Shown in pieces: positions 3,170 to 58,565 of a DNA stretch of 64,000 nucleotides. Position numbers and translations under genes: made by a program. Within the stretch, counting starts at the first letter, position 1; every line of letters starts with the position of its first letter. A model generated the notes under the pieces. It did no database searches and had not been told where the DNA came from. It saw only the letters and a program-made list of their open reading frames with translations. This DNA comes from an uncultured Clostridia bacterium (lineage in GTDB: Bacteria; Bacillota; Clostridia; Christensenellales; UBA1242), in assembly GCA_949949035.1 (NCBI GenBank), contig CATLHJ010000001.1, positions 6,116 to 70,115 of the forward strand, read 5' to 3'.

Positions 3170-5659
3170 ATGCCTGACCTTACTGGACTTAATGCGCGGG
3201 AAGTGGACGCTGCCCGTCGGCAGTACGGACGTAATGTTTTAACGCCCCCGAAGTCGCGTAGTTTTTGGACGATTTTACTTGGTAATCTTGGTGATCCGAT
3301 TATGAAAATTCTTATGTTCGTCACCGCGATTAACTTGGCGTTTTTGTTTTATTCGCGCAATTTTTTGGAAACCTTCGGCATCGTGGTGTCCATTGTGATT
3401 GCCGTAACTGTCAGTACGTTAAGCGAACTGGGTAGCGAAAGTGCGTTTAAGAAACTGGAAAAAATGACCGCCACCCTGCAGTCGCGGGTTAAGCGAACTG
3501 GGCAGACGGTATTGGTGCCCGCGGTGGATTTGGTCGTCGGCGATTTAGTGTTACTCGGCAGTGGGGACAAGGTACCGGCCGACGGGGTCATGGTCAGTGG
3601 CGAAATTACCATTGACCAAAGTATCTTAAATGGCGAGAGTGCGGAATGTCACAAGCGGGCGGGTGGTGCTGTTCCCGATCATGCCGACTTTTTGTCGCCC
3701 GTGCAAGTTTTTTCGGGGACCATTGTTACGGGGGGCAATGGCCTGTTCCGCGTCACGGCGGTGGGTGACCAAACCGAATACGGAAAAATTGCCAAAGGTT
3801 TAACCGAAGAGGCCCCGACCAGTCCGTTAAAGGTCAAGTTATCCAAGTTGGCCGGCTTGGTGTCCTTAATCGGTTACCTTGGTGCGTTTATCGCGGCCAT
3901 TACTTATTTAATCAGTGTTGGTCGCGACGGGTTCACTTTTAACGAAATTTTGAACGCGGTAACTTTGGTGGTGTCCGTTATCGTAATGGCGGTGCCCGAA
4001 GGTTTACCCATGATGATTACCGTGGTGTTGTCGTCCAACATGCGAGCAATGATGAAAGATAATCTGTTGGTACGTAAATTAAGCGCCGTGGAAACAGCGG
4101 GTAGCCTTAACATTTTATTTACCGATAAGACGGGGACGATCACGGCGGGGCAGTTATCCGTGTGTGGGGTGTTGTTGCCGAACGGGCAATATGTGACCGA
4201 TCACTTTACCCAGCAGTTGGGTGGTTTCGGGCAACTGTTAGGTACCGCGTTAGTGGTGAACAACGAAGCCGAACACACGGCTCATGGTTTTATTGGGGGC
4301 AATATTACCGATCGGGTACTGGCAGAATTCGGTTACAAGTTACTTGGCGGAGTAGTACCTACGGTAACCAAGGTGAACAGTGTGCCTTTTTCTTCCGCAA
4401 CTAAATACATGGCTACGGAAACCGCGGATGGTTCCTTATATTACAAAGGAGCCACCGAAGTGTTGTTGCCGCGTTGCCAATTAACCCCCGATGAGCGGAT
4501 TAAACTGCAACAGCAAGTGGTGGCCTTGAACGAACAAGCCATTCGCGTAATTTGCGTGACCGAAGGTGACGTATTACTTGGCTTTATCGCCTTGCGCGAC
4601 GCGGTACGGCCGGAAGCCAAAGCCAGTATTGATACTTTGCATACCGCCCAAATGCAAGTGGTCTTGGTAACGGGTGACGCCCGTGAAACGGCGGTGGCAG
4701 TTGCCAAAGAAGTGGGCATTTTGGACACTGACGGCGTGGTGCTAACCAGTGATGAACTTAACCAACTGGACGATAAGGCGTTGGCGGCGGTGTTGCCACG
4801 TTTACGGGTAGTGTCGCGGGCGTACCCGCAAGATAAAAGCCGTCTGGTTAAGGTAGCGCAGTCGCTTAATCTGGTGGTGGGTATGACGGGTGACGGGGTT
4901 AACGATGCTCCTGCCTTGAAACGTGCCGAATTGGGTTTTGCTATGGGCAGTGGTACCGAAGTAGCCAAAGCCGCGGGCGATATTATTATTGTTGACGATA
5001 ATATCAAGTCGATTACCAAAGCAGTTTCTTTTGGGCGTACCTTATTTGAAAGTATCCGTAAATTCTTGGTTTTCAAACTGACGATTAACTTTGTAGCGAT
5101 GGCAATTTGTATTATGGCGCCGTTGTTCGGTATCGCGTCGCCGATTACCGTTATGCAAATGCTATGGATTAACTTGGTGATGGATACTTTGGCGGGGTTG
5201 GCGTTTGGCGGTGAAAAACCGCGTGCCAAGTACCTGCGCCAACCACCCAAGCGGCGGGACGAAAGTTTAATTACGCGGGCGATGTGGGGGCAGATTATTT
5301 GGGGCAGTATCTTTGGCACACTGATTTGTTTGTGGTTCCTGTTATCGCCTTACGTGCAACGCATTGTTGGCGACCAAGCCACTTTCGCGACCGTGTTCTT
5401 TACTTTCTTTATGTTCCTTAATCTTTGTAACGCGTTCAATGCGCGGGCGGACGGGGTTAATATTTTCGCGGGGTTATTCAAAAACAAAGCGTTTATCATT
5501 ATCATGGGGTTAATCGTGGTGGCCCAGTTTGCGATTATCTATTGGGGTGGGGGAGTATTCCGTACCATACCACTGGACTTTATTTATATTGCTTTTGCGG
5601 GGGTACTGGCCCTGTCCATGGTGCCGGCTGAACTATTCCGCAAAGCGGTGTTCAAATAA
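3170..5659 (+). CDS. P-type cation-transporting ATPase, Ca2+ (PMCA/SERCA-like, YloB-type)
   Basis: 829 aa. Motifs present: phosphorylation site LFTDKTGTIT, PEGLP (VPEGLPMMITVVLS), and hinge TGDGVNDAPAL. The N-terminus LNAREVDAARRQYGRN is typical of P2 ATPases. TATATA (3158-3163) ends 6 nt before the ATG. Confidence 0.88.
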   Translation: MPDLTGLNAREVDAARRQYGRNVLTPPKSRSFWTILLGNLGDPIMKILMFVTAINLAFLFYSRNFLETFGIVVSIVIAVTVSTLSELGSESAFKKLEKMTATLQSRVKRTGQTVLVPAVDLVVGDLVLLGSGDKVPADGVMVSGEITIDQSILNGESAECHKRAGGAVPDHADFLSPVQVFSGTIVTGGNGLFRVTAVGDQTEYGKIAKGLTEEAPTSPLKVKLSKLAGLVSLIGYLGAFIAAITYLISVGRDGFTFNEILNAVTLVVSVIVMAVPEGLPMMITVVLSSNMRAMMKDNLLVRKLSAVETAGSLNILFTDKTGTITAGQLSVCGVLLPNGQYVTDHFTQQLGGFGQLLGTALVVNNEAEHTAHGFIGGNITDRVLAEFGYKLLGGVVPTVTKVNSVPFSSATKYMATETADGSLYYKGATEVLLPRCQLTPDERIKLQQQVVALNEQAIRVICVTEGDVLLGFIALRDAVRPEAKASIDTLHTAQMQVVLVTGDARETAVAVAKEVGILDTDGVVLTSDELNQLDDKALAAVLPRLRVVSRAYPQDKSRLVKVAQSLNLVVGMTGDGVNDAPALKRAELGFAMGSGTEVAKAAGDIIIVDDNIKSITKAVSFGRTLFESIRKFLVFKLTINFVAMAICIMAPLFGIASPITVMQMLWINLVMDTLAGLAFGGEKPRAKYLRQPPKRRDESLITRAMWGQIIWGSIFGTLICLWFLLSPYVQRIVGDQATFATVFFTFFMFLNLCNAFNARADGVNIFAGLFKNKAFIIIMGLIVVAQFAIIYWGGGVFRTIPLDFIYIAFAGVLALSMVPAELFRKAVFK

Positions 5660-6362
5660 TTTGGTTTTTGCGAACCAATCGCCAATCGCCAACCGCCAAG
5701 TTGCCCAGTCGTAACTTGCCTTCCGCGACGCGGGTAAGAGTGAGTACGTTCAGGTTTTGGGTGGCAAACATTTTACGGATTTGGCGGTTACGGCCTTCGT
5801 GAATGGTTACTTGAATACGAGTGCGTTCGTGGTTAAGGTAACTAAATTGGGCAGGCGCCGTCCTAACGCCGTCAATGTTGACCCCGCGGGACAGGGTGAC
5901 CAGCTCCTGTTGGGTAACGGGGCGGTCGACGGTCGCCCAATAAACCTTGTCGACATGAGTGGACGGGTGGGTTAACTTTTTAGTTAAAGCACCATCGTTG
6001 GTTAGTAATAACAGTCCCGTGGTATGGTAATCTAACCGCCCCACGGGGTATAAACGCAGTCGGTTAATTAAGTTACCATATTGCTTGGGGTTGTCGCGCA
6101 ACACGTCTAACACCGTGCGCCGGCCTTGCGGATCGGCGGTGGTGGAAACCACGCCGTCGGGTTTGTTTAGTAAAATGTACACTAGGTCGGTTGGTGGGGT
6201 TACCGGACGATCATCCACCATCACGGTAGTGTCGGGGGTAACCGTGGTCGCCAGGTTAGTGATGACTTGGCCGTTGATTTTGACCCGACCGGTCACCACC
6301 AAGTTTTCTACATGACGGCGACTGCCGAGTCCGCATTGGGCAAGATATTTGTTTACTCGCAT
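5652..6362 (-). CDS. rluB: pseudouridine synthase, RsuA/RluB family
   Basis: S4-domain N-terminus MRVNKYLAQCGLGSRR and catalytic GRLDYHTTGLLLLTNDG. I trimmed the track ORF (start 6551) to the internal ATG at 6362, which aligns with the family N-terminus. Confidence 0.85.
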   Translation of the reverse strand: MRVNKYLAQCGLGSRRHVENLVVTGRVKINGQVITNLATTVTPDTTVMVDDRPVTPPTDLVYILLNKPDGVVSTTADPQGRRTVLDVLRDNPKQYGNLINRLRLYPVGRLDYHTTGLLLLTNDGALTKKLTHPSTHVDKVYWATVDRPVTQQELVTLSRGVNIDGVRTAPAQFSYLNHERTRIQVTIHEGRNRQIRKMFATQNLNVLTLTRVAEGKLRLGNLAVGDWRLVRKNQII

Positions 6363-6384
6363 ACGAAAAAAGTATATCATAGAA
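6363..6384. promoter_or_regulatory. 22-bp divergent intergenic region with overlapping opposite-strand -10 boxes (rluB / SurE-like 1)
   Basis: Sequence ACGAAAAAAGTATATCATAGAA. Minus strand: TGaTATACT (6379..6371), then 8 nt to ATG 6362. Plus strand: TATATC (6373-6378), then 6 nt to ATG 6385. No room for leaders or SDs. Confidence 0.5.
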
Positions 6385-7188
6385 ATGATGAATATCCTAA
6401 TTGCTAACGTACGTAATTTGGAAGCCCCCGAAACGCGGGTGTTGGCGGGGGAACTGGCCAAGAAGCACCGCGTGACGGTTTGCTCCATGGATTTGCCCAG
6501 TCGGCAAAAGGGTAACGCTTTTTCGTACAGCGGTTTTCCCATTAAGTTCAAACAGCTTAGTAGTTACCAAATTAACGGGGAAAAAATTCCCGCCTATAAA
6601 TTCCAAGGCACACCCGCGGACATGATGTCGATTATGCTGGGTAACATCATGCGTCACCGTCAACCGCAAATTGTCATCTGCGGGATCAGTAATGGTATTT
6701 CTTTGGGCACCGATGTATTTTGTTCGTCAAACGTAGGAATGGCGATGCAGGCCGCGTTTGCTAACGTACCGTGTATTGCGGTAGGCATGCCGATGCGGGT
6801 CGGGGGACACAGCGAAGCCGAGTTGTTGCCGGTGGCGCAATTTATTGCGAAAAACATTGAGAAACTGGCCAAAATGCAATTACCGACCGATACTTTCTTA
6901 AACATTTCTTTCCCGTTGGTTAAAAAATACGAAGACTACCAAGGGGTGGGTATCTCGTCCATGGATAACTTAACCAAGATGACCCGTTATGTGGAAAAGG
7001 TCGACTGCAAGGGTAACACCTACTACTGGGCGGAAATGGTGACCCGCGAAAGTGCGGAGAACGCACCATTGTCACCGACCGCCGGTATGTCGTATTTCCA
7101 AAAGCATTACATCATTATGTCGCCGTTAACCTATGATTGTACCGATTACACCCGTTTATCCGCGTTACAAAAGGGGGAAAGGCTATGA
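6385..7188 (+). CDS. SurE-like protein, divergent paralog 1 (N-terminal metal-binding motif absent)
   Basis: 267 aa with SurE-family blocks: QGTPADMMSIMLG, ICGISNGISLGTDVFCSSNVGMAMQAA, LNISFP, and a C-terminal SPLTYDCTDY. The N-terminus MMNILIANVRNLEAP lacks the canonical NDDG. Confidence 0.65.
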   Translation: MMNILIANVRNLEAPETRVLAGELAKKHRVTVCSMDLPSRQKGNAFSYSGFPIKFKQLSSYQINGEKIPAYKFQGTPADMMSIMLGNIMRHRQPQIVICGISNGISLGTDVFCSSNVGMAMQAAFANVPCIAVGMPMRVGGHSEAELLPVAQFIAKNIEKLAKMQLPTDTFLNISFPLVKKYEDYQGVGISSMDNLTKMTRYVEKVDCKGNTYYWAEMVTRESAENAPLSPTAGMSYFQKHYIIMSPLTYDCTDYTRLSALQKGERL

Positions 7189-7955
7189 AAATTTTGCTTA
7201 CTAACGAAGCGGGCTGTTTTCACCCCGGCATTGTCGCGTTAGCCAAAGAATTAAGTAAGGACCATCGAGTTTGCGTGGTGGCACCGTTAAACCGGTTAAG
7301 CGGAGCGGGGCACGCGTTAACTACCGACCAACGACCGTTGCACGCGCAACAGTGGTTCGTGTTGGACAGTGTTAAAATGTGGTCAGTAGACGGCACGCCT
7401 TGCGACTGTGTGGCGTTGGCGTTAGACAAATTATTGTTGGATAAACCCGACTTAATTATCGCGGGGATTGATCCGGTTAATAATCGTGGTAATATGATTT
7501 ACACCAGCGGAGTGGTCTCGGCCGCTTTGGAAGGTGCAATTCAGGGCATTAAAAGCATTGCCATCAGTGCTCCTATTGCCGACGACAAAAAAGAAAAGTT
7601 GTACCGTCCGGTGGCAAAATGGGTGGCACGTAAATTACGCTACTTAGTAAATTGTACGCCGGATTTCGGGGCGTTAAACGTAAACTTTCCAACAAAATTT
7701 AAACCCCAAAAAATTATGCCTACGCAATTAACGGATGGTTTATTGGATAACGATTACGAGATTGAAGTTAACCCGTTTGGTTCGACTTACGCGTGGCTAA
7801 AAAGTCCGTTAAGGGAATTTGGTTTGGAGGCTTATGGGCAACAAGGGGATTTGTACTGGTTAAAGCAGGGTTACATTACGGTAACGCCATTAAAGTTAGA
7901 CTTATTAAAGGGCGAAGCGGTAACGGCCTTGCAGAAAGCGGGGATTAAGTTATGA
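7185..7955 (+). CDS. surE: SurE-like 5'/3'-nucleotidase family protein, paralog 2
   Basis: 256 aa. It starts MKILLTNEAGCFHPGIVALAKELSKDHRVCVVAPLNRLSGAGHALT and carries DGTPCDCVALAL, YTSGVVSAALEG and LNVNFP. ATGA start/stop overlap with paralog 1. SD AGGGGGA upstream. Confidence 0.75.
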   Translation: MKILLTNEAGCFHPGIVALAKELSKDHRVCVVAPLNRLSGAGHALTTDQRPLHAQQWFVLDSVKMWSVDGTPCDCVALALDKLLLDKPDLIIAGIDPVNNRGNMIYTSGVVSAALEGAIQGIKSIAISAPIADDKKEKLYRPVAKWVARKLRYLVNCTPDFGALNVNFPTKFKPQKIMPTQLTDGLLDNDYEIEVNPFGSTYAWLKSPLREFGLEAYGQQGDLYWLKQGYITVTPLKLDLLKGEAVTALQKAGIKL

Positions 7956-13102: not shown

Positions 13103-13132
13103 ATGGTACACCCGTTTAGTAAATAAAGTCAA
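13103..13132 (-). promoter_or_regulatory. putative corA promoter, leaderless geometry
   Basis: Minus strand: TTGACT (13132..13127), 18 nt, TACCAT (13108..13103), 6 nt, ATG 13096. Confidence 0.45.
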
Positions 13133-13193: not shown

Positions 13194-16100
13194 ATGAATA
13201 AGTTCAAGAGCAAATTTCTTAGTTTATTAACGCCATTGGCCGTGTTGTCTTTGGCCGTGGTGATGATGATTGCCGCTCCGATGACATCTTTAATGGGGGC
13301 TCTGCGTGTTAACGCAGCCAGTGTCAGCAGCGATAATTTTACCATTACTAATTTACCGGCGCGTTATGCCGAAGTCGGTGACGAAATCCAACAACCCGCA
13401 CTGACTGCGGGGACCGTGGTCCTGTGGCACGCCAACCGCGAAATGACCGTTAACAATGGTGATCAATACCGCGAAGCGGGGCAGTACGAATGGCGGTTCT
13501 ATACTGACGCCACCAAAAAACAACTGATTACCACCCACACTGTTTACGTAACACAACCCGAATACGTGATTACGATGCCCAGTGTGGTACCGACCGTGGC
13601 ACCGAAAGATTTAACGGACGGCAAGTTGGCATTACCGTTGCCGGAAAAATTGACCAAGGATGATGAGGAAATAACCTTGGGTGATGATTATAAGTTAGTA
13701 GTTAAGGCGTTCAAAGGCATTATCGATTTGTCGGACAAAGTAACCGTTAATAACACCGACGACCAAAAGAATGTGGTGGTTGATTTGTCCGGTTTATCTA
13801 CCGACGAACGTTTTGGTACCCTGAAAGTAACTTATATCTTGCGCGATACCCATGGCCAAGATTTGACCGCCAAAGTCTTGACCGATATTGAAATTAAAGA
13901 CTGCAATAAAGATCAGGTTACGTTCAGCAGTAACCCCGCGGCGCCCAGCGTTCAAAGTTTGGCCTTATGGCAAGAAATTACTTTAACGGCGCCGACCGCC
14001 AGCAGTGCCAAATACGATAATACCACCTTTAATGTGGAAGCCACGACGAAAATTATCGGTTACAAGTTCTATAACGGTGCTACGCAGCCCAGTAATTGGG
14101 ATAAAATCGGTACGGTTAACTGTGCCAGCGGTTATATTGATGATGACGCGGTGAAAATTGATGGTTTGCAAGTTACTACTAAACAGTTGGGTTGGTACAA
14201 ATTCTTGTTCCGCACCGATACTTTGTTTGGCAATAAATCGGACAACGAAAACGAAACGGATGGCGAATATTGGAGTGATGCCGTCAATATCAAGAGCGAC
14301 AGCCGTAGTCCCGAATTTAAATTTGTTGACGCCTATGGTACAGACGACGTTAGTGTGGCCGACAAAACTTTGAAGGAGGTAGCCTTCGCCGACTTGGTGG
14401 ACGAATACAGTGACCGCTATCCTTTTAGTAGCAGCAGTTCCGAACCGGCCAGTGACGCACAGAAAATTTTGGTTGACCAAAAAACAACTTTGACCTTACC
14501 GGCGATTTTCGCCGTGGATAATAATACCGCCCTTGACCAATTAAAAATGACGGTAACCGTGGCGCAAGTCAAGGACGTTGACGGTAATAAGGTTACCGAC
14601 CCTAATACCGCAGCCGTTTATTATAATAACGCTTACCATGATGATACTTATAACCCCGGTAAGGTATTGAAAATCGATTTCGCCAACAGTACTGCGACCA
14701 GTGGTGATAATTTTATCCACTTAACTAACGATGCCGGGTTGTATTTAATTACGTTGAACATTGAAGATACAGCACCTAAATATGGTAATGGCGACGCGAC
14801 CAGCAGCAACAGCCCGCGTCGTGCACAAAAGTATTTATATTTCCAATTAGGTAAAAACACCTTGGATATGAGTGCTGACAGTTATTCGCCAACGATTGAT
14901 GCATTCCAAGTTAGTGACGTTTACTTATGGGAAGGTAAAACTTTTGATTTCGCGGTGCCGACGTACAGTGATCTTTACACGCCGACCGCCAACATCGCCA
15001 TGGATTACTATTTGGTAAATAAAAAAAGCAAACAAGTTTTCCGTTTGGACAACGATGACATTTCGGCAGGACGTATGCATGTTGACTTAATGGACCTAAT
15101 GGACGATGGGGAATGGGCTGCGTTTAAGAACGATACTTCGGACGTCAGCATTTACGCGGTAGCGCGTAACTTTACCTACCTGCAATACGAATGGAACGAA
15201 GCGGTTACGGCTAACAAATACGCCGATCTTACGCTTTACCAAGGTGATAAAATCGGCGACTTACCAACGGCCGGCAAATTGGGCAATGGTTTAACGGTAG
15301 CCCAAGTTCCCTTTACCATGCACTCCGTGGCGACCAGTACTGCCGGCACCTTGTCGGTAGCGGTGGATAATGGTACTGACAGCAATACGACTTTCAAGGC
15401 GGGCGAGGCAGTGCGCATTAAAAACGCCAGTGTTAATTGGAGTTCCGAAATTGACGGCCGAATCAGCGTGGCGGCTTACCAATTAAAAGACGACGGCAGT
15501 CGCGTGGCGGTTAGCGTGGTCGACGATAACCAAAAAGATGCGAACCAAAACGAAAATGTGTCCGCAGTGGCTTTCCGTCGTAGCAGTTACGCTATCGAAA
15601 ATTGGTACTTTACACCGCGCAACGCGGGAACTTATCAAGTTGTGGTTACCGCCAAAAATAACGCCAGCAACGTGGTGATTGCCAATGTGCAAACTTTGAC
15701 CGTGGACCCCAACGGCGAGTGGGTACCGTTACCGACGGCAATGAGTACAACTTCGGGTGCGCCCGACGCCACTTTGACGATGGGTACCGCGGGGCGGGTG
15801 GTTGTGCCGAACTTGGGTAAAAATGGTGCCACGACGCCAACCTATCGTGCCAAGGACCGTAAACTATACGGTGCGGATGGTAACGTCAATGGCGACTATA
15901 CGATTACCGTGCAGGGTGTTAATGACCCGAATTGCTTAACTGGTGAACGCTTTGTGCCGAACCAAGCCGGAACCTATACTTTTGCGATTGACTACTATGA
16001 CAGTAGTAAAAATTGGTTGAGTACCGTCAATTACGTGGTTGAAGTCACCGCCGATGGTAACAACACCACCAGTGCTATTAAATTGGATACGGCTTACGGT

Positions 16101-28809: not shown

Positions 28810-29480
28810 CTTTCGTTACCTCCCTGTTTCATCATACGCACCACCGCGGTAGAAATGTGAAAAGCCAAAACTTGTTGGTAAGCGGACGTTTGCAACAACT
28901 TGCGTTCGCGGGGGTTGGTTAAGAAGCCGCACTCAATTAAGACGGCAGGGCAGGGCGAATGTTCGACCAAGTTAAAGTCGGTTGGTTTAACCGTTTTGTA
29001 CATTGGTAACCCGCTGTGGTTAAATTGGTCTTGGATGGCGGTGGCGTATTCGCGACTGCCCGCGGTCTCGTTGGCGTAGAAACATTGCAGGCCACTGACC
29101 GAAGTTAGTGGGTAAGTATTTTGGTGGATGGCGATGACCAAGTCGGGGTCAAGTTCACGAATTTTGGCACGGCGTTTGTTCATGTCGTCCACTTTTTTAT
29201 TGCTGGCGTACGGTGAATTAAGACTTTCTTCGTCGACCCGAGTAAAGGAAACTTTAATTCCTTGGGCGGTTAGTTCCCGTGCCAATACTTTAACAATTTG
29301 CAGGTTAATTTGGGCTTCACTGACGCCCGCGACAGTGGCTCCGTTATCGTGTCCGCCGTGTCCCGCGTCCAACACGACGTGGAATTGGGTCGGTGCGGTA
29401 ACGGCTGGTGTGGCGTTAAAATCGCAAAAAATCGCTAAACTGACCGCCAATAAACACAAACTAATTGCCAAATAGCGCAT
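28761..29480 (-). CDS. N-acetylmuramoyl-L-alanine amidase (Amidase_3; CwlD-like size and architecture)
   Basis: 239 aa from ATG 29480, with an N-terminal signal/TM (MRYLAISLCLLAVSLAIF). Motifs include VVLDAGHGGHDNGA, AIHQN and ECGFLTNPRE. Length and layout resemble the sporulation amidase CwlD. Confidence 0.8.
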   Translation of the reverse strand: MRYLAISLCLLAVSLAIFCDFNATPAVTAPTQFHVVLDAGHGGHDNGATVAGVSEAQINLQIVKVLARELTAQGIKVSFTRVDEESLNSPYASNKKVDDMNKRRAKIRELDPDLVIAIHQNTYPLTSVSGLQCFYANETAGSREYATAIQDQFNHSGLPMYKTVKPTDFNLVEHSPCPAVLIECGFLTNPRERKLLQTSAYQQVLAFHISTAVVRMMKQGGNERCVTNVQPSAMCSVLS

Positions 29481-29501
29481 TGCTATGTATATTAAAATTG
29501 C
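29481..29501. promoter_or_regulatory. 21-bp divergent intergenic region with one symmetric -10 core serving both strands (amidase / ABC exporter)
   Basis: Sequence TGCTATGTATATTAAAATTGC. Plus strand: TATATT (29488-29493), then 8 nt to ATG 29502. Minus strand: TAATAT (29494..29489), then 8 nt to ATG 29480. Confidence 0.5.
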
Positions 29502-42665: not shown

Positions 42666-43785
42666 GTTGTAACGGGAACGGGCAGGGTAACGCCACCACG
42701 CTTTCGGGAACGTTAGCGACGTCCGCCGTCCAGACAAAAGTCTGCCCGTCATAGGCGTGGGGCGATAAAATTTCCAAAGTATCGCCGGGGCAGATTTTAT
42801 TTTTGATAATCAGTTCGGTCGGCGACTTAACTAAACCGACAAAAGCGTAGGTGGGTAAGGACGCGGCACGGTCGGTGTACTGTTTACTGCTACCATCGTC
42901 AAAGGTGAAACCGGTAGTGTAGGGGCGGTGCGGTAACTTTAACAATTCGCGATGATAATCTTTGGCCACGCCGTCTAGCGCTTGGCGGTAGGCATGAACT
43001 ACCCCCGCCACGTAATATTCACTTTTCATGCGTCCTTCAATCTTCAGGCTGGTGACTCCCGCAGCGATTAACTCGGGCAGGTGGTCGATTAAGCACAAGT
43101 CGCGGCTGTTCATCAAGTAGGTACCATGTTGGTCTTCGGCAAGTGAGTACGCTTCGTTGGGACGGGTGACTTCGTGCAAAACATATTGATAGCGACACGG
43201 TTGGGCACAGTCACCGCGGTTGGCGTCGCGTCCCGTCAGGTGGTTGGAAAGCAAACAACGGCCACTGTAGGCCATGCACATCGCCCCGTGCACAAACACT
43301 TCAACTTCGGCTTGACCGCGCAGAGCGGTAGCAATTGTTTTAATGGCTTTGATGTCTAACTCACGCGCCAAAATAACCCGACTGGCTCCTTGTTTGACGT
43401 AGGCGAGCGCGGTACGGGCGTTGGTAATATTGGCTTGGGTGGAAACGTGAATGGGCAGGTGGGTGTATTCGCGGAAAATTTGGATGACGCCTAAATCGGC
43501 GACAATCACCGCGTCCACCCCAATTTGGTCCAGTTGTTGGGCGTACGTGGTTAAGCGCTTGAAATCATGGTCACGGGCAAATATGTTAACCGTGACGTAC
43601 ACTTTTTTGCCTTGGTCATGCGCCAGTTGTACTACTCGCCGCATTTCAGCGAGCGTGAAATTAACCGCTCGGGCTCGTAAACTGAAATCCTTGCCCGCCA
43701 AATAAATCGCGTCGGCGCCGTAATTAAAGGCGGTTAGGGCTCGCTGGTAATCGCCGGCGGGGGCCAACAATTCAACTTTGTTCAT
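42625..43785 (-). CDS. peptidase U32 family protein
   Basis: 386 aa from ATG 43785 (MNKVELLAPAGDYQRALTAFNYGADAIYLAG). U32 hallmarks are present: the ELLAPAG start, the EVEVFVHGAMCMAYSGRCLLS block and the DANRGDCAQPCR motif. Confidence 0.88.
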   Translation of the reverse strand: MNKVELLAPAGDYQRALTAFNYGADAIYLAGKDFSLRARAVNFTLAEMRRVVQLAHDQGKKVYVTVNIFARDHDFKRLTTYAQQLDQIGVDAVIVADLGVIQIFREYTHLPIHVSTQANITNARTALAYVKQGASRVILARELDIKAIKTIATALRGQAEVEVFVHGAMCMAYSGRCLLSNHLTGRDANRGDCAQPCRYQYVLHEVTRPNEAYSLAEDQHGTYLMNSRDLCLIDHLPELIAAGVTSLKIEGRMKSEYYVAGVVHAYRQALDGVAKDYHRELLKLPHRPYTTGFTFDDGSSKQYTDRAASLPTYAFVGLVKSPTELIIKNKICPGDTLEILSPHAYDGQTFVWTADVANVPESVVALPCPFPLQPNDILRKPLPAAQ

Positions 43786-52088: not shown

Positions 52089-52099
52089 ACCGATATAAT

Positions 52100-52128
52100 T
52101 TGCAATTTAGCAAAAATAATTATATACT
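52100..52128 (+). promoter_or_regulatory. putative lysK promoter, leaderless geometry
   Basis: TTGCAA (52100-52105), 17 nt, TATACT (52123-52128), 6 nt, ATG 52135. No SD and no space for a T-box leader. Confidence 0.5.
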
Positions 52129-52134
52129 GGGCTT

Positions 52135-58489: not shown

Positions 58490-58495
58490 AATTTC

Positions 58496-58524
58496 ATTAT
58501 AGACGATGGTGCGCGGTGTGTAAA
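58496..58524 (-). promoter_or_regulatory. putative fba promoter, leaderless geometry
   Basis: Minus strand: TTTACA (58524..58519), 17 nt, TATAAT (58501..58496), 6 nt, ATG 58489. Confidence 0.55.
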
Positions 58525-58530
58525 AACAAT

Positions 58531-58559
58531 TTGCGTTAAAATGGCTTAAAAGTTATCAT
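58531..58559 (+). promoter_or_regulatory. putative GT2-gap promoter, leaderless geometry
   Basis: TTGCGT (58531-58536), 17 nt, TATCAT (58554-58559), 6 nt, ATG 58566. Confidence 0.5.
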
Positions 58560-58565
58560 ATAAGT

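Follow-up and report, generated by a model that had tools for sequence, protein, structure and literature searches.

A 25-bp spacer between a pseudouridine synthase gene and a SurE-like gene as a probable bidirectional promoter core for two leaderless genes in an uncultured Clostridia bacterium

The divergent gene pair and its start codons

We analyzed a 64,000-nucleotide (nt) stretch of DNA from an uncultured Clostridia/Eubacteriales bacterium (hereafter, the window) and focused on the short spacer that separates two divergent housekeeping genes within it. On the minus strand lies a gene for a pseudouridine synthase (5652-6362; 236 amino acids [aa], ATG at 6362), and on the plus strand a gene for a SurE-like protein, SurE-like paralogue 1 (6388-7188; 266 aa, ATG at 6388). 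The complete spacer, ACGAAAAAAGTATATCATAGAAATG, is 25 bp long (6363-6387) and carries no Shine-Dalgarno sequence on either strand. We put a probability of roughly 0.72 on the reading that it is a single bidirectional sigma-A promoter core for two leaderless genes.

Both flanking genes were assigned by family. The synthase begins with MRVNKYLAQCG and consists, in Pfam terms, of an S4 domain (residues 1-46) followed by PseudoU_synth_2. An initial annotation of this DNA, made from the letters, had named the gene rluB, a label that finds no support at the equivalog level: among NCBIfam models only the generic TIGR00093 passed (154.7; cut-off, 109.3), while the RluB model NF007976 (111.3; cut-off, 290), RsuA (126.6; cut-off, 275), and RluF (123.3; cut-off, 318) all fell below their cut-offs. 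The most fitting name is RsuA/RluB/RluF-family synthase. A P-type ATPase gene (3170-5659, plus) is convergent with it, and the two overlap by 8 bp (5652-5659), which leaves no room for a terminator between them.

The SurE-like protein matches Pfam SurE (PF01975, E = 1.8e-24), with the match beginning at residues encoded from 6394, and it matches SurE structures in the PDB down to E = 6.6e-21. Its TIGR00087 score of 88.9 is under the cut-off of 135.1, and paralogue 1 fails every SurE equivalog cut-off. From SurE structures, N-D-D-G is the N-terminal metal-binding motif of SurE proteins; this motif is not matched in paralogue 1, where N-V-R-N aligns opposite the N-D-D-G of PDB 5ksq. The gene heads the string SurE-like / SurE / cmk / Asp23 / nusB / xseA. 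It forms a tandem pair with the second SurE paralogue (7185-7955), which reads N-E-A-G at the motif, so that neither member has N-D-D-G. The tandem pair is kept across the clade, and by their sequences these paralogues may be non-catalytic or altered in function.

Because the interpretation of so short a spacer depends on its two ends, we examined both start codons across species. A scan using one genome per species retrieved 17 close relatives with the same head-to-head arrangement, from rumen and gut metagenome-assembled genomes (MAGs); their SurE-like proteins are 71-93% and their synthases 64-82% identical to those of the window, and adding the window species gives a set of 18. Three of these syntenic relatives (L010, L016, and L022) are deposited as "Prevotella sp." MAGs and are probably mis-binned or mislabelled. 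The identical synthase protein occurs on 24 contigs, including one in NCBI assembly GCA_948533085.1, and the gene callers there agree on both starts. The synthase start at ATG 6362, as initially annotated, was borne out: the S4 domain runs from residue 1, and a TAG adjoins the ATG directly upstream in 13 of the 17 relatives.

For the SurE-like gene, ATG 6385 and ATG 6388 had both been entertained. All 18 homologues retrieved begin with MNIL, MNIV, MHIL, or VNIL, and most are 266 aa long. The triplet at 6385-6387 is not conserved as a start, being ATG, GTG, TTG, CTA, TTA, or TAG across the 17 relatives. Seven relatives reach an in-frame stop without any alternative SurE-like start, in L016 a stop stands immediately before the ATG, and M1 of PDB 5ksq aligns with M1 of the SurE-like protein. 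These observations place the start at ATG 6388 rather than 6385. The sequence earlier reported for 6363-6384, ACGAAAAAAGTATATCATAGAA, is correct as read, but the gap that it was thought to fill is therefore 25 bp and not 22 bp. The 25-bp length is identical in 18/18 species.

It could be argued that the start codons are mis-assigned altogether and that the intergenic region is larger or smaller and in no way special. The reading frames in the window are indeed open upstream, with a minus-strand TTG at 6551 and plus-strand TTG 6349 and ATG 6385. Against this stand the relatives with stops directly upstream, the S4 domain and SurE fold that extend from residue 1, and the agreement of homologue N-termini, and we regard such an error as scarcely credible. 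A different pair of start codons with a much larger gap between them, the outcome that the initial annotation had named as fatal to its proposal, was thus rejected; the sole adjustment is the choice of 6388 over 6385.

Predicted promoter elements and conservation of the spacer

We searched the spacer for elements that could direct transcription both ways. On the minus strand, positions 6379 to 6371 read TGATATACT, followed by 8 nt and then ATG 6362. This is the extended -10 element TGaTATACT (6371-6379) that had been proposed for the synthase gene, at the distance proposed. On the plus strand there are two overlapping candidates, TATATC (6373-6378) and TATCAT (6375-6380), as initially noted. 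Our preference is for TATCAT, which lies 7 nt before ATG 6388; TATATC lacks T at position 6 and is the less likely of the two. In a consensus scan, TTTACT (6352-6357), a 17-bp spacer, and TATCAT gave 9/12 matches, the sole promoter-like site in the spacer region. The TTTACT, TTTACG in some relatives, is the candidate plus -35 element for the SurE-like operon and lies inside synthase codons 2-4. Another minus-strand hexamer, TATGAT (6381-6376), forms TAnnnTA with TATCAT (the 18-bp class described below); we consider it less likely than TGaTATACT, as it is 13 nt from the ATG and position 6381 is G in relative L010. For the minus -35 element, the sequence offers only the weak candidates TAGGAT (6399-6394) or TTAGGA (6400-6395), a weakness for which the TG extension can compensate.

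The two preferred hexamers, TATCAT on the plus strand and TATACT (6376-6371) on the minus strand, overlap by symmetry and have in common the palindromic TA at 6375-6376, positions 1-2 of each. This overlap is narrower than the 6371-6378 first described: TA is all that the hexamers share, and the TG extension of the minus element falls within the plus hexamer. The arrangement matches a known class of promoter. In Escherichia coli, 19% of transcription start sites belong to divergent pairs 7-25 bp apart that arise from symmetric overlapping -10 elements; 18 bp is the most frequent spacing, separations of 29, 23, 12, 10, and 7 bp are enriched as well, and mutations in the shared element lowered both transcripts. 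Firmicutes span the same configurations (Warman, Forrest, Wade & Grainger; bioRxiv 10.1101/2020.01.31.928960). A later study gives 18, 10, and 23 bp as common spacings and reports that one polymerase binding event excludes the other (NAR 2026, PMC12825309). Hexamers that share positions 1-2 place start sites at the optimal 7-nt distance 23 bp apart by simple arithmetic, which is the published 23-bp class. The suggested likeness to the symmetric E. coli arrangement is thus upheld by the geometry.

With this spacing, transcription of the SurE-like operon is predicted to start at 6387 (7 nt after TATCAT) or 6388 (the A of the ATG), and that of the synthase gene at 6364 (7 nt after TATACT, giving a 2-nt leader) or 6362 (the A of the ATG). 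The predicted leaders would be 0-1 and 0-2 nt, respectively, and 23 bp would separate the starts at 6387 and 6364. On both strands the base 7 nt after the hexamer lies in a pyrimidine(-1)/purine(+1) context: 6386 is T in 17/18 species and 6387 a purine in all 18, while on the minus side 6365 is a pyrimidine in 18/18 and 6364 a purine in 16/18.

We next consider how strongly the spacer is constrained. In the ungapped 18-species alignment the 10-bp core at 6371-6380, AGTATATCAT, is invariant, and with it both -10 elements; 6366-6369 and 6383 are likewise invariant, and 6363-6365, 6370, 6381-6382, and 6384-6387 vary. The distances from the core to the two ATGs are fixed in 18/18 species (8 nt beyond TATACT, 7 nt beyond TATCAT).

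The constraint continues into both genes and then stops. Within the first 110 codons we took all degenerate codons whose amino acid is invariant in the 18 species and asked which are frozen to a single codon. Four of 55 are frozen in the synthase gene, and all of these are codons 3-6 (GTA AAC AAA TAT); in the SurE-like gene 5/57 are frozen, three of them being codons 2-4 (AAT ATC CTA). Beyond synthase codon 6 and SurE-like codon 4 the only frozen sites are the isolated N10 and F45. At the DNA level, these codons lie in invariant blocks at 6343-6356, which takes in 6352-6356 of the plus -35 element, and at 6388-6399, which covers the weak minus -35 region. Each frozen stretch coincides with the place that the -35 region of the opposing promoter has to occupy, and the lack of comparable constraint deeper in either gene speaks against a promoter located farther into the partner gene.

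This evidence bears on a rival explanation, in which only one direction, or neither, fires from the core and the promoter of the other gene lies inside the opposing coding sequence. Overlapping antisense 5' regions would follow, with a longer leader that lacks a Shine-Dalgarno sequence and A/U-rich, S1-type translation. The weak minus -35 element is compatible with such an arrangement, as is the precedent that bidirectional promoters are often asymmetric in strength (bioRxiv 10.1101/2020.01.31.928960). In the csoR-cueA divergon of Bradyrhizobium liaoningense, where overlapping -10 elements were mapped, one side is leaderless (csoR starts at the A of its ATG) and the other, cueA, has a 42-nt leader (PMC5057107). 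The abrupt end of the frozen synonymous sites speaks against a promoter within either gene, and so do the strict core-to-ATG spacings, which a distant promoter does not require. No upstream Shine-Dalgarno sequence was present in any of the 18 species, and between 5400 and 7400, on both strands, the sole other promoter-like match was on the plus strand at 5477-5505, at the far end of the convergent ATPase gene. We therefore judge this explanation improbable.

A second rival holds that the invariant block is mainly a regulator operator or some other DNA-level signal, to which the likeness to -10 elements is incidental. The 10-bp core does contain a TAT-N3-ATA dyad, and a 6-mer of one frozen block is repeated exactly, in inverted orientation, in the other (GATATT at 6345-6350, AATATC at 6391-6396). 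The dyad, however, is exactly what two overlapping -10 hexamers produce, and the 6-mer repeat is statistically weak and unequally distant from the two promoters. No regulator gene is adjacent, and unrelated genes whose sequences differ show a -10 element placed in the same way before the ATG (next section). An operator as the main function is accordingly very unlikely. The inverted 6-mer puts AAUAUC near both predicted mRNA 5' ends (at +14 and +4), possibly by coincidence.

Leaderless signatures across the window

The window is very compact, and the -10-to-ATG signature of the spacer is shared by many of its operon-first genes. TAnnnT occurs 4-8 nt upstream in 12 of the 32 ATG-start genes of the 64-kb window, to which this test was confined, compared with 149 of 1533 background ATGs (9.7%; binomial p = 2.5e-5), and the modal distance to the ATG is 6 nt. 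Three further genes fit once their starts are corrected from N-terminal sequences, all on the minus strand: secA (TATAAT, 6 nt, ATG 35620), a corA-like gene (TTGACT, 18 nt, TACCAT, 6 nt, ATG 13096), and a U32 peptidase gene (TATACT, 6 nt, ATG 43785). In most operon-first genes we observed a TATAAT-like box 5-8 nt before the start and no Shine-Dalgarno sequence, for example at 13194, 26257, 35620 (minus), 39007, 43785 (minus), 43863, 49258, 52135, 53724, 58489 (minus), and 58566. Shine-Dalgarno sites of the GGAGG type precede internal operon genes (e.g., 7185, 10512, 28476 [minus], 35730, and 59525).

This pattern resembles that of the genomes classed as group C, in which a Pribnow box lies 6-8 nt from the start and to which only 3.4% of Firmicutes were assigned (GeneMarkS-2, PMC6028130). 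The distances at our spacer, 7 nt on the plus and 8 nt on the minus strand, fall within that range. Group C genomes retain Shine-Dalgarno sequences at internal genes, and with such sequences at internal genes and -10 boxes at operon-first starts the window shows the same mixture. Leaderless-rich genomes include those of Mycobacterium tuberculosis and Deinococcus deserti (PMC4007540); the host here, in contrast, is an uncultured gut/rumen member of the Clostridia/Eubacteriales, neither an actinobacterium nor a Deinococcus.

The window holds a second divergent pair with a shared core. The two genes encode an amidase_3 protein (minus strand, ATG 29480) and an ABC transporter (plus strand, ATG 29502) and stand 21 bp apart. 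Their hexamers, TATATT (29488-29493, plus) and TAATAT (29494-29489, minus), have 5 bp in common, and the pairing of positions 2 and 6 puts them in the 18-bp class. Each hexamer is 8 nt from its own ATG. The 239-aa amidase start agrees with that called for a homologue of 99% identity. Five related genomes retain the TAATATA core and a gap of 21-22 bp, and in-frame stops delimit the starts in them. Conservation of this pair indicates that the shared-core architecture is recurrent in the lineage. A metagenome scan with the ABC transporter returned only ABC proteins of 22-23% identity. In one relative (L039; JAMPCO010000003.1, 1480-1500) ATC stands in place of the amidase ATG and the caller has moved the start to a downstream GTG, which could reflect a lost leaderless start or an assembly variant.

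Three other closely spaced pairs were examined and set aside. The pair at 43785/43806 was a candidate for a third shared core, but for the plus-strand gene the most likely start is GTG 43863, which has a separate TGtTATACT 6 nt before it, leaving a 77-bp gap. Those at 13132/13194 and 35695/35730 are not tight pairs: with the corA-like gene starting at ATG 13096 and secA at ATG 35620, the gaps are about 97 and 109 bp, respectively, and the -10 boxes are separate. Separate -10 boxes were also seen at two divergent pairs whose genes look leaderless on both sides, 52089-52134 (46-bp gap) and 58490-58565 (76-bp gap).

Some of these start assignments differ from those of gene callers or of the longest open reading frame, which run upstream over the promoter. 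Examples are a 255-aa amidase call in relative L036 (1501-1548) and TTG/GTG upstream extensions of the corA-like (13132), secA (35695), and U32 peptidase (43821) genes. This suggests systematic mis-annotation of starts in a leaderless lineage.

Predicted mechanism, precedents, and significance

In the mechanism that we favor, sigma-A (sigma-70-type) RNA polymerase would bind the invariant AGTATATCAT block in either orientation. Binding to the top strand (TATCAT, with the -35 element TTTACT in the first synthase codons) would start transcription at 6387/6388 and produce the SurE-like / SurE / cmk / Asp23 / nusB string. Binding to the bottom strand (TGaTATACT, an extended -10 element needing little from a -35) would start it at 6364-6362 and produce the synthase mRNA. 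Both mRNAs would open at the AUG, or 1-2 nt earlier, and without a Shine-Dalgarno sequence; lacking both this sequence and a leader, they would be translated by leaderless initiation, with the ribosome directly on the 5'-terminal AUG. Since the hexamers share TA 6375-6376 and the upstream half of each promoter extends into the opposite gene, the two modes of polymerase binding should exclude each other. The same placement of each upstream half in the partner's first codons would account for the freezing of the first 4-6 codons of both genes at synonymous sites. We infer start sites, leaderless translation, and mutual exclusion alike.

Several considerations weigh against this reading. The start sites of this uncultured organism are deduced from sequence, which by itself cannot place them, a point that also favors transcription in one direction only. 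The minus -35 element is poor, matching 3/6 positions at best. The 7- and 8-nt distances are at the long end of the distribution in the window (mode, 6 nt), and transcription may start 1-2 nt upstream of the AUGs. The frozen 5' codons could come partly from constraint on the mRNA 5' end, which is not separable from constraint by the partner's promoter. When the four predicted 5' ends were folded as RNA, no significant signal emerged (z from -1.35 to +0.64), and Rfam found no RNA family in the whole window. Finally, in trials with random 25-mers, 1.3-4.4% had TAnnnT at 5-8 nt from each of the two starts, so a single sequence is weak to modest evidence, and it is conservation, the frozen codons, and recurrence that carry the argument.

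The initial annotation had left two possibilities, that both genes are leaderless and fire from one symmetric core or that each promoter lies inside the other gene. All of the computational evidence points to the first: the starts are fixed, the core and its spacings are invariant, frozen codons lie near the starts only, the signature recurs, and the geometry has a published counterpart. Both upstream sequences in the 25-bp gap, TTTTTTCGT and CATAGAAATG, are devoid of Shine-Dalgarno sequences.

Compared with the E. coli bidirectional promoters, the spacer has the same overlap of opposite-strand -10 elements through TAnnnT symmetry and the same 23-bp geometry, and the pair at 29480/29502 has the commonest, 18-bp geometry. 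The E. coli transcripts, in contrast, have normal leaders or are non-coding, whereas here starts are predicted within 0-2 nt of the start codons. The core and its two discriminators would thereby fill the intergenic region completely, with the predicted -35 regions placed inside the genes. The csoR-cueA divergon likewise has divergent genes, partly overlapping -10 elements, and a leaderless csoR, but only one of its sides is leaderless and a CsoR operator overlaps its core. The spacer described here shows no evident operator or regulator, and the genes on both of its sides look leaderless. Leaderless regulator mRNAs divergent from a neighboring promoter are also produced from lambda cI (from PRM) and Tn1721 tetR. 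In those cases the promoters are separate or partly overlapping, one partner has a leader, and the genes are regulatory switches rather than housekeeping genes. Our literature searches turned up no published pair of divergent genes that share a -10 element and are both leaderless, only the one-sided csoR-cueA; such pairs plausibly exist unremarked in leaderless-rich actinobacteria. In this locus two known principles come together in a new example, and its host belongs to a lineage that seldom has leaderless genes.

The tight pair is not found in more distant relatives. In L018 about 540 bp separate the SurE-like gene, which has TATAAT and a leader with a Shine-Dalgarno sequence, from a divergent synthase gene; in L020 and L024 the synthase gene runs in the same direction. 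In several termite-gut Bacillota, TATAAT or TACAAT stands 6 nt before the ATG of the SurE-like gene. The tight pair is thus derived and confined to one clade, which belongs to a larger group with leaderless starts already in use. We raise, as a tentative possibility on the less probable side, a lineage-wide reading in which leaderless expression is the default for operon-first genes and divergent pairs have repeatedly been compressed onto a symmetric core of about 10 bp, with gaps of 21-25 bp.

The locus flags a Firmicutes lineage with apparently pervasive leaderless genes, in which a practical concern is misplaced gene-caller starts, as for the L036 amidase, secA, the corA-like gene, and the U32 peptidase. 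It also offers a test bed for competition between polymerase orientations, for the 5' extension that leaderless translation tolerates, and for the freezing of synonymous sites where promoter and coding sequence overlap. If our reading of the spacer is true, nature would have provided, in an evolutionarily stable form, a control region for two genes at its smallest possible size, a core of about 10 bp with no untranslated regions. Should the lineage-wide reading also hold, the choice of polymerase orientation alone would apportion expression between the two genes, and the first codons of each would double as the promoter of its partner. Such pairs would then represent a distinct "minimal divergon" grammar, and translation initiation would have adapted specifically in this lineage, within a phylum that otherwise relies almost entirely on Shine-Dalgarno sequences.

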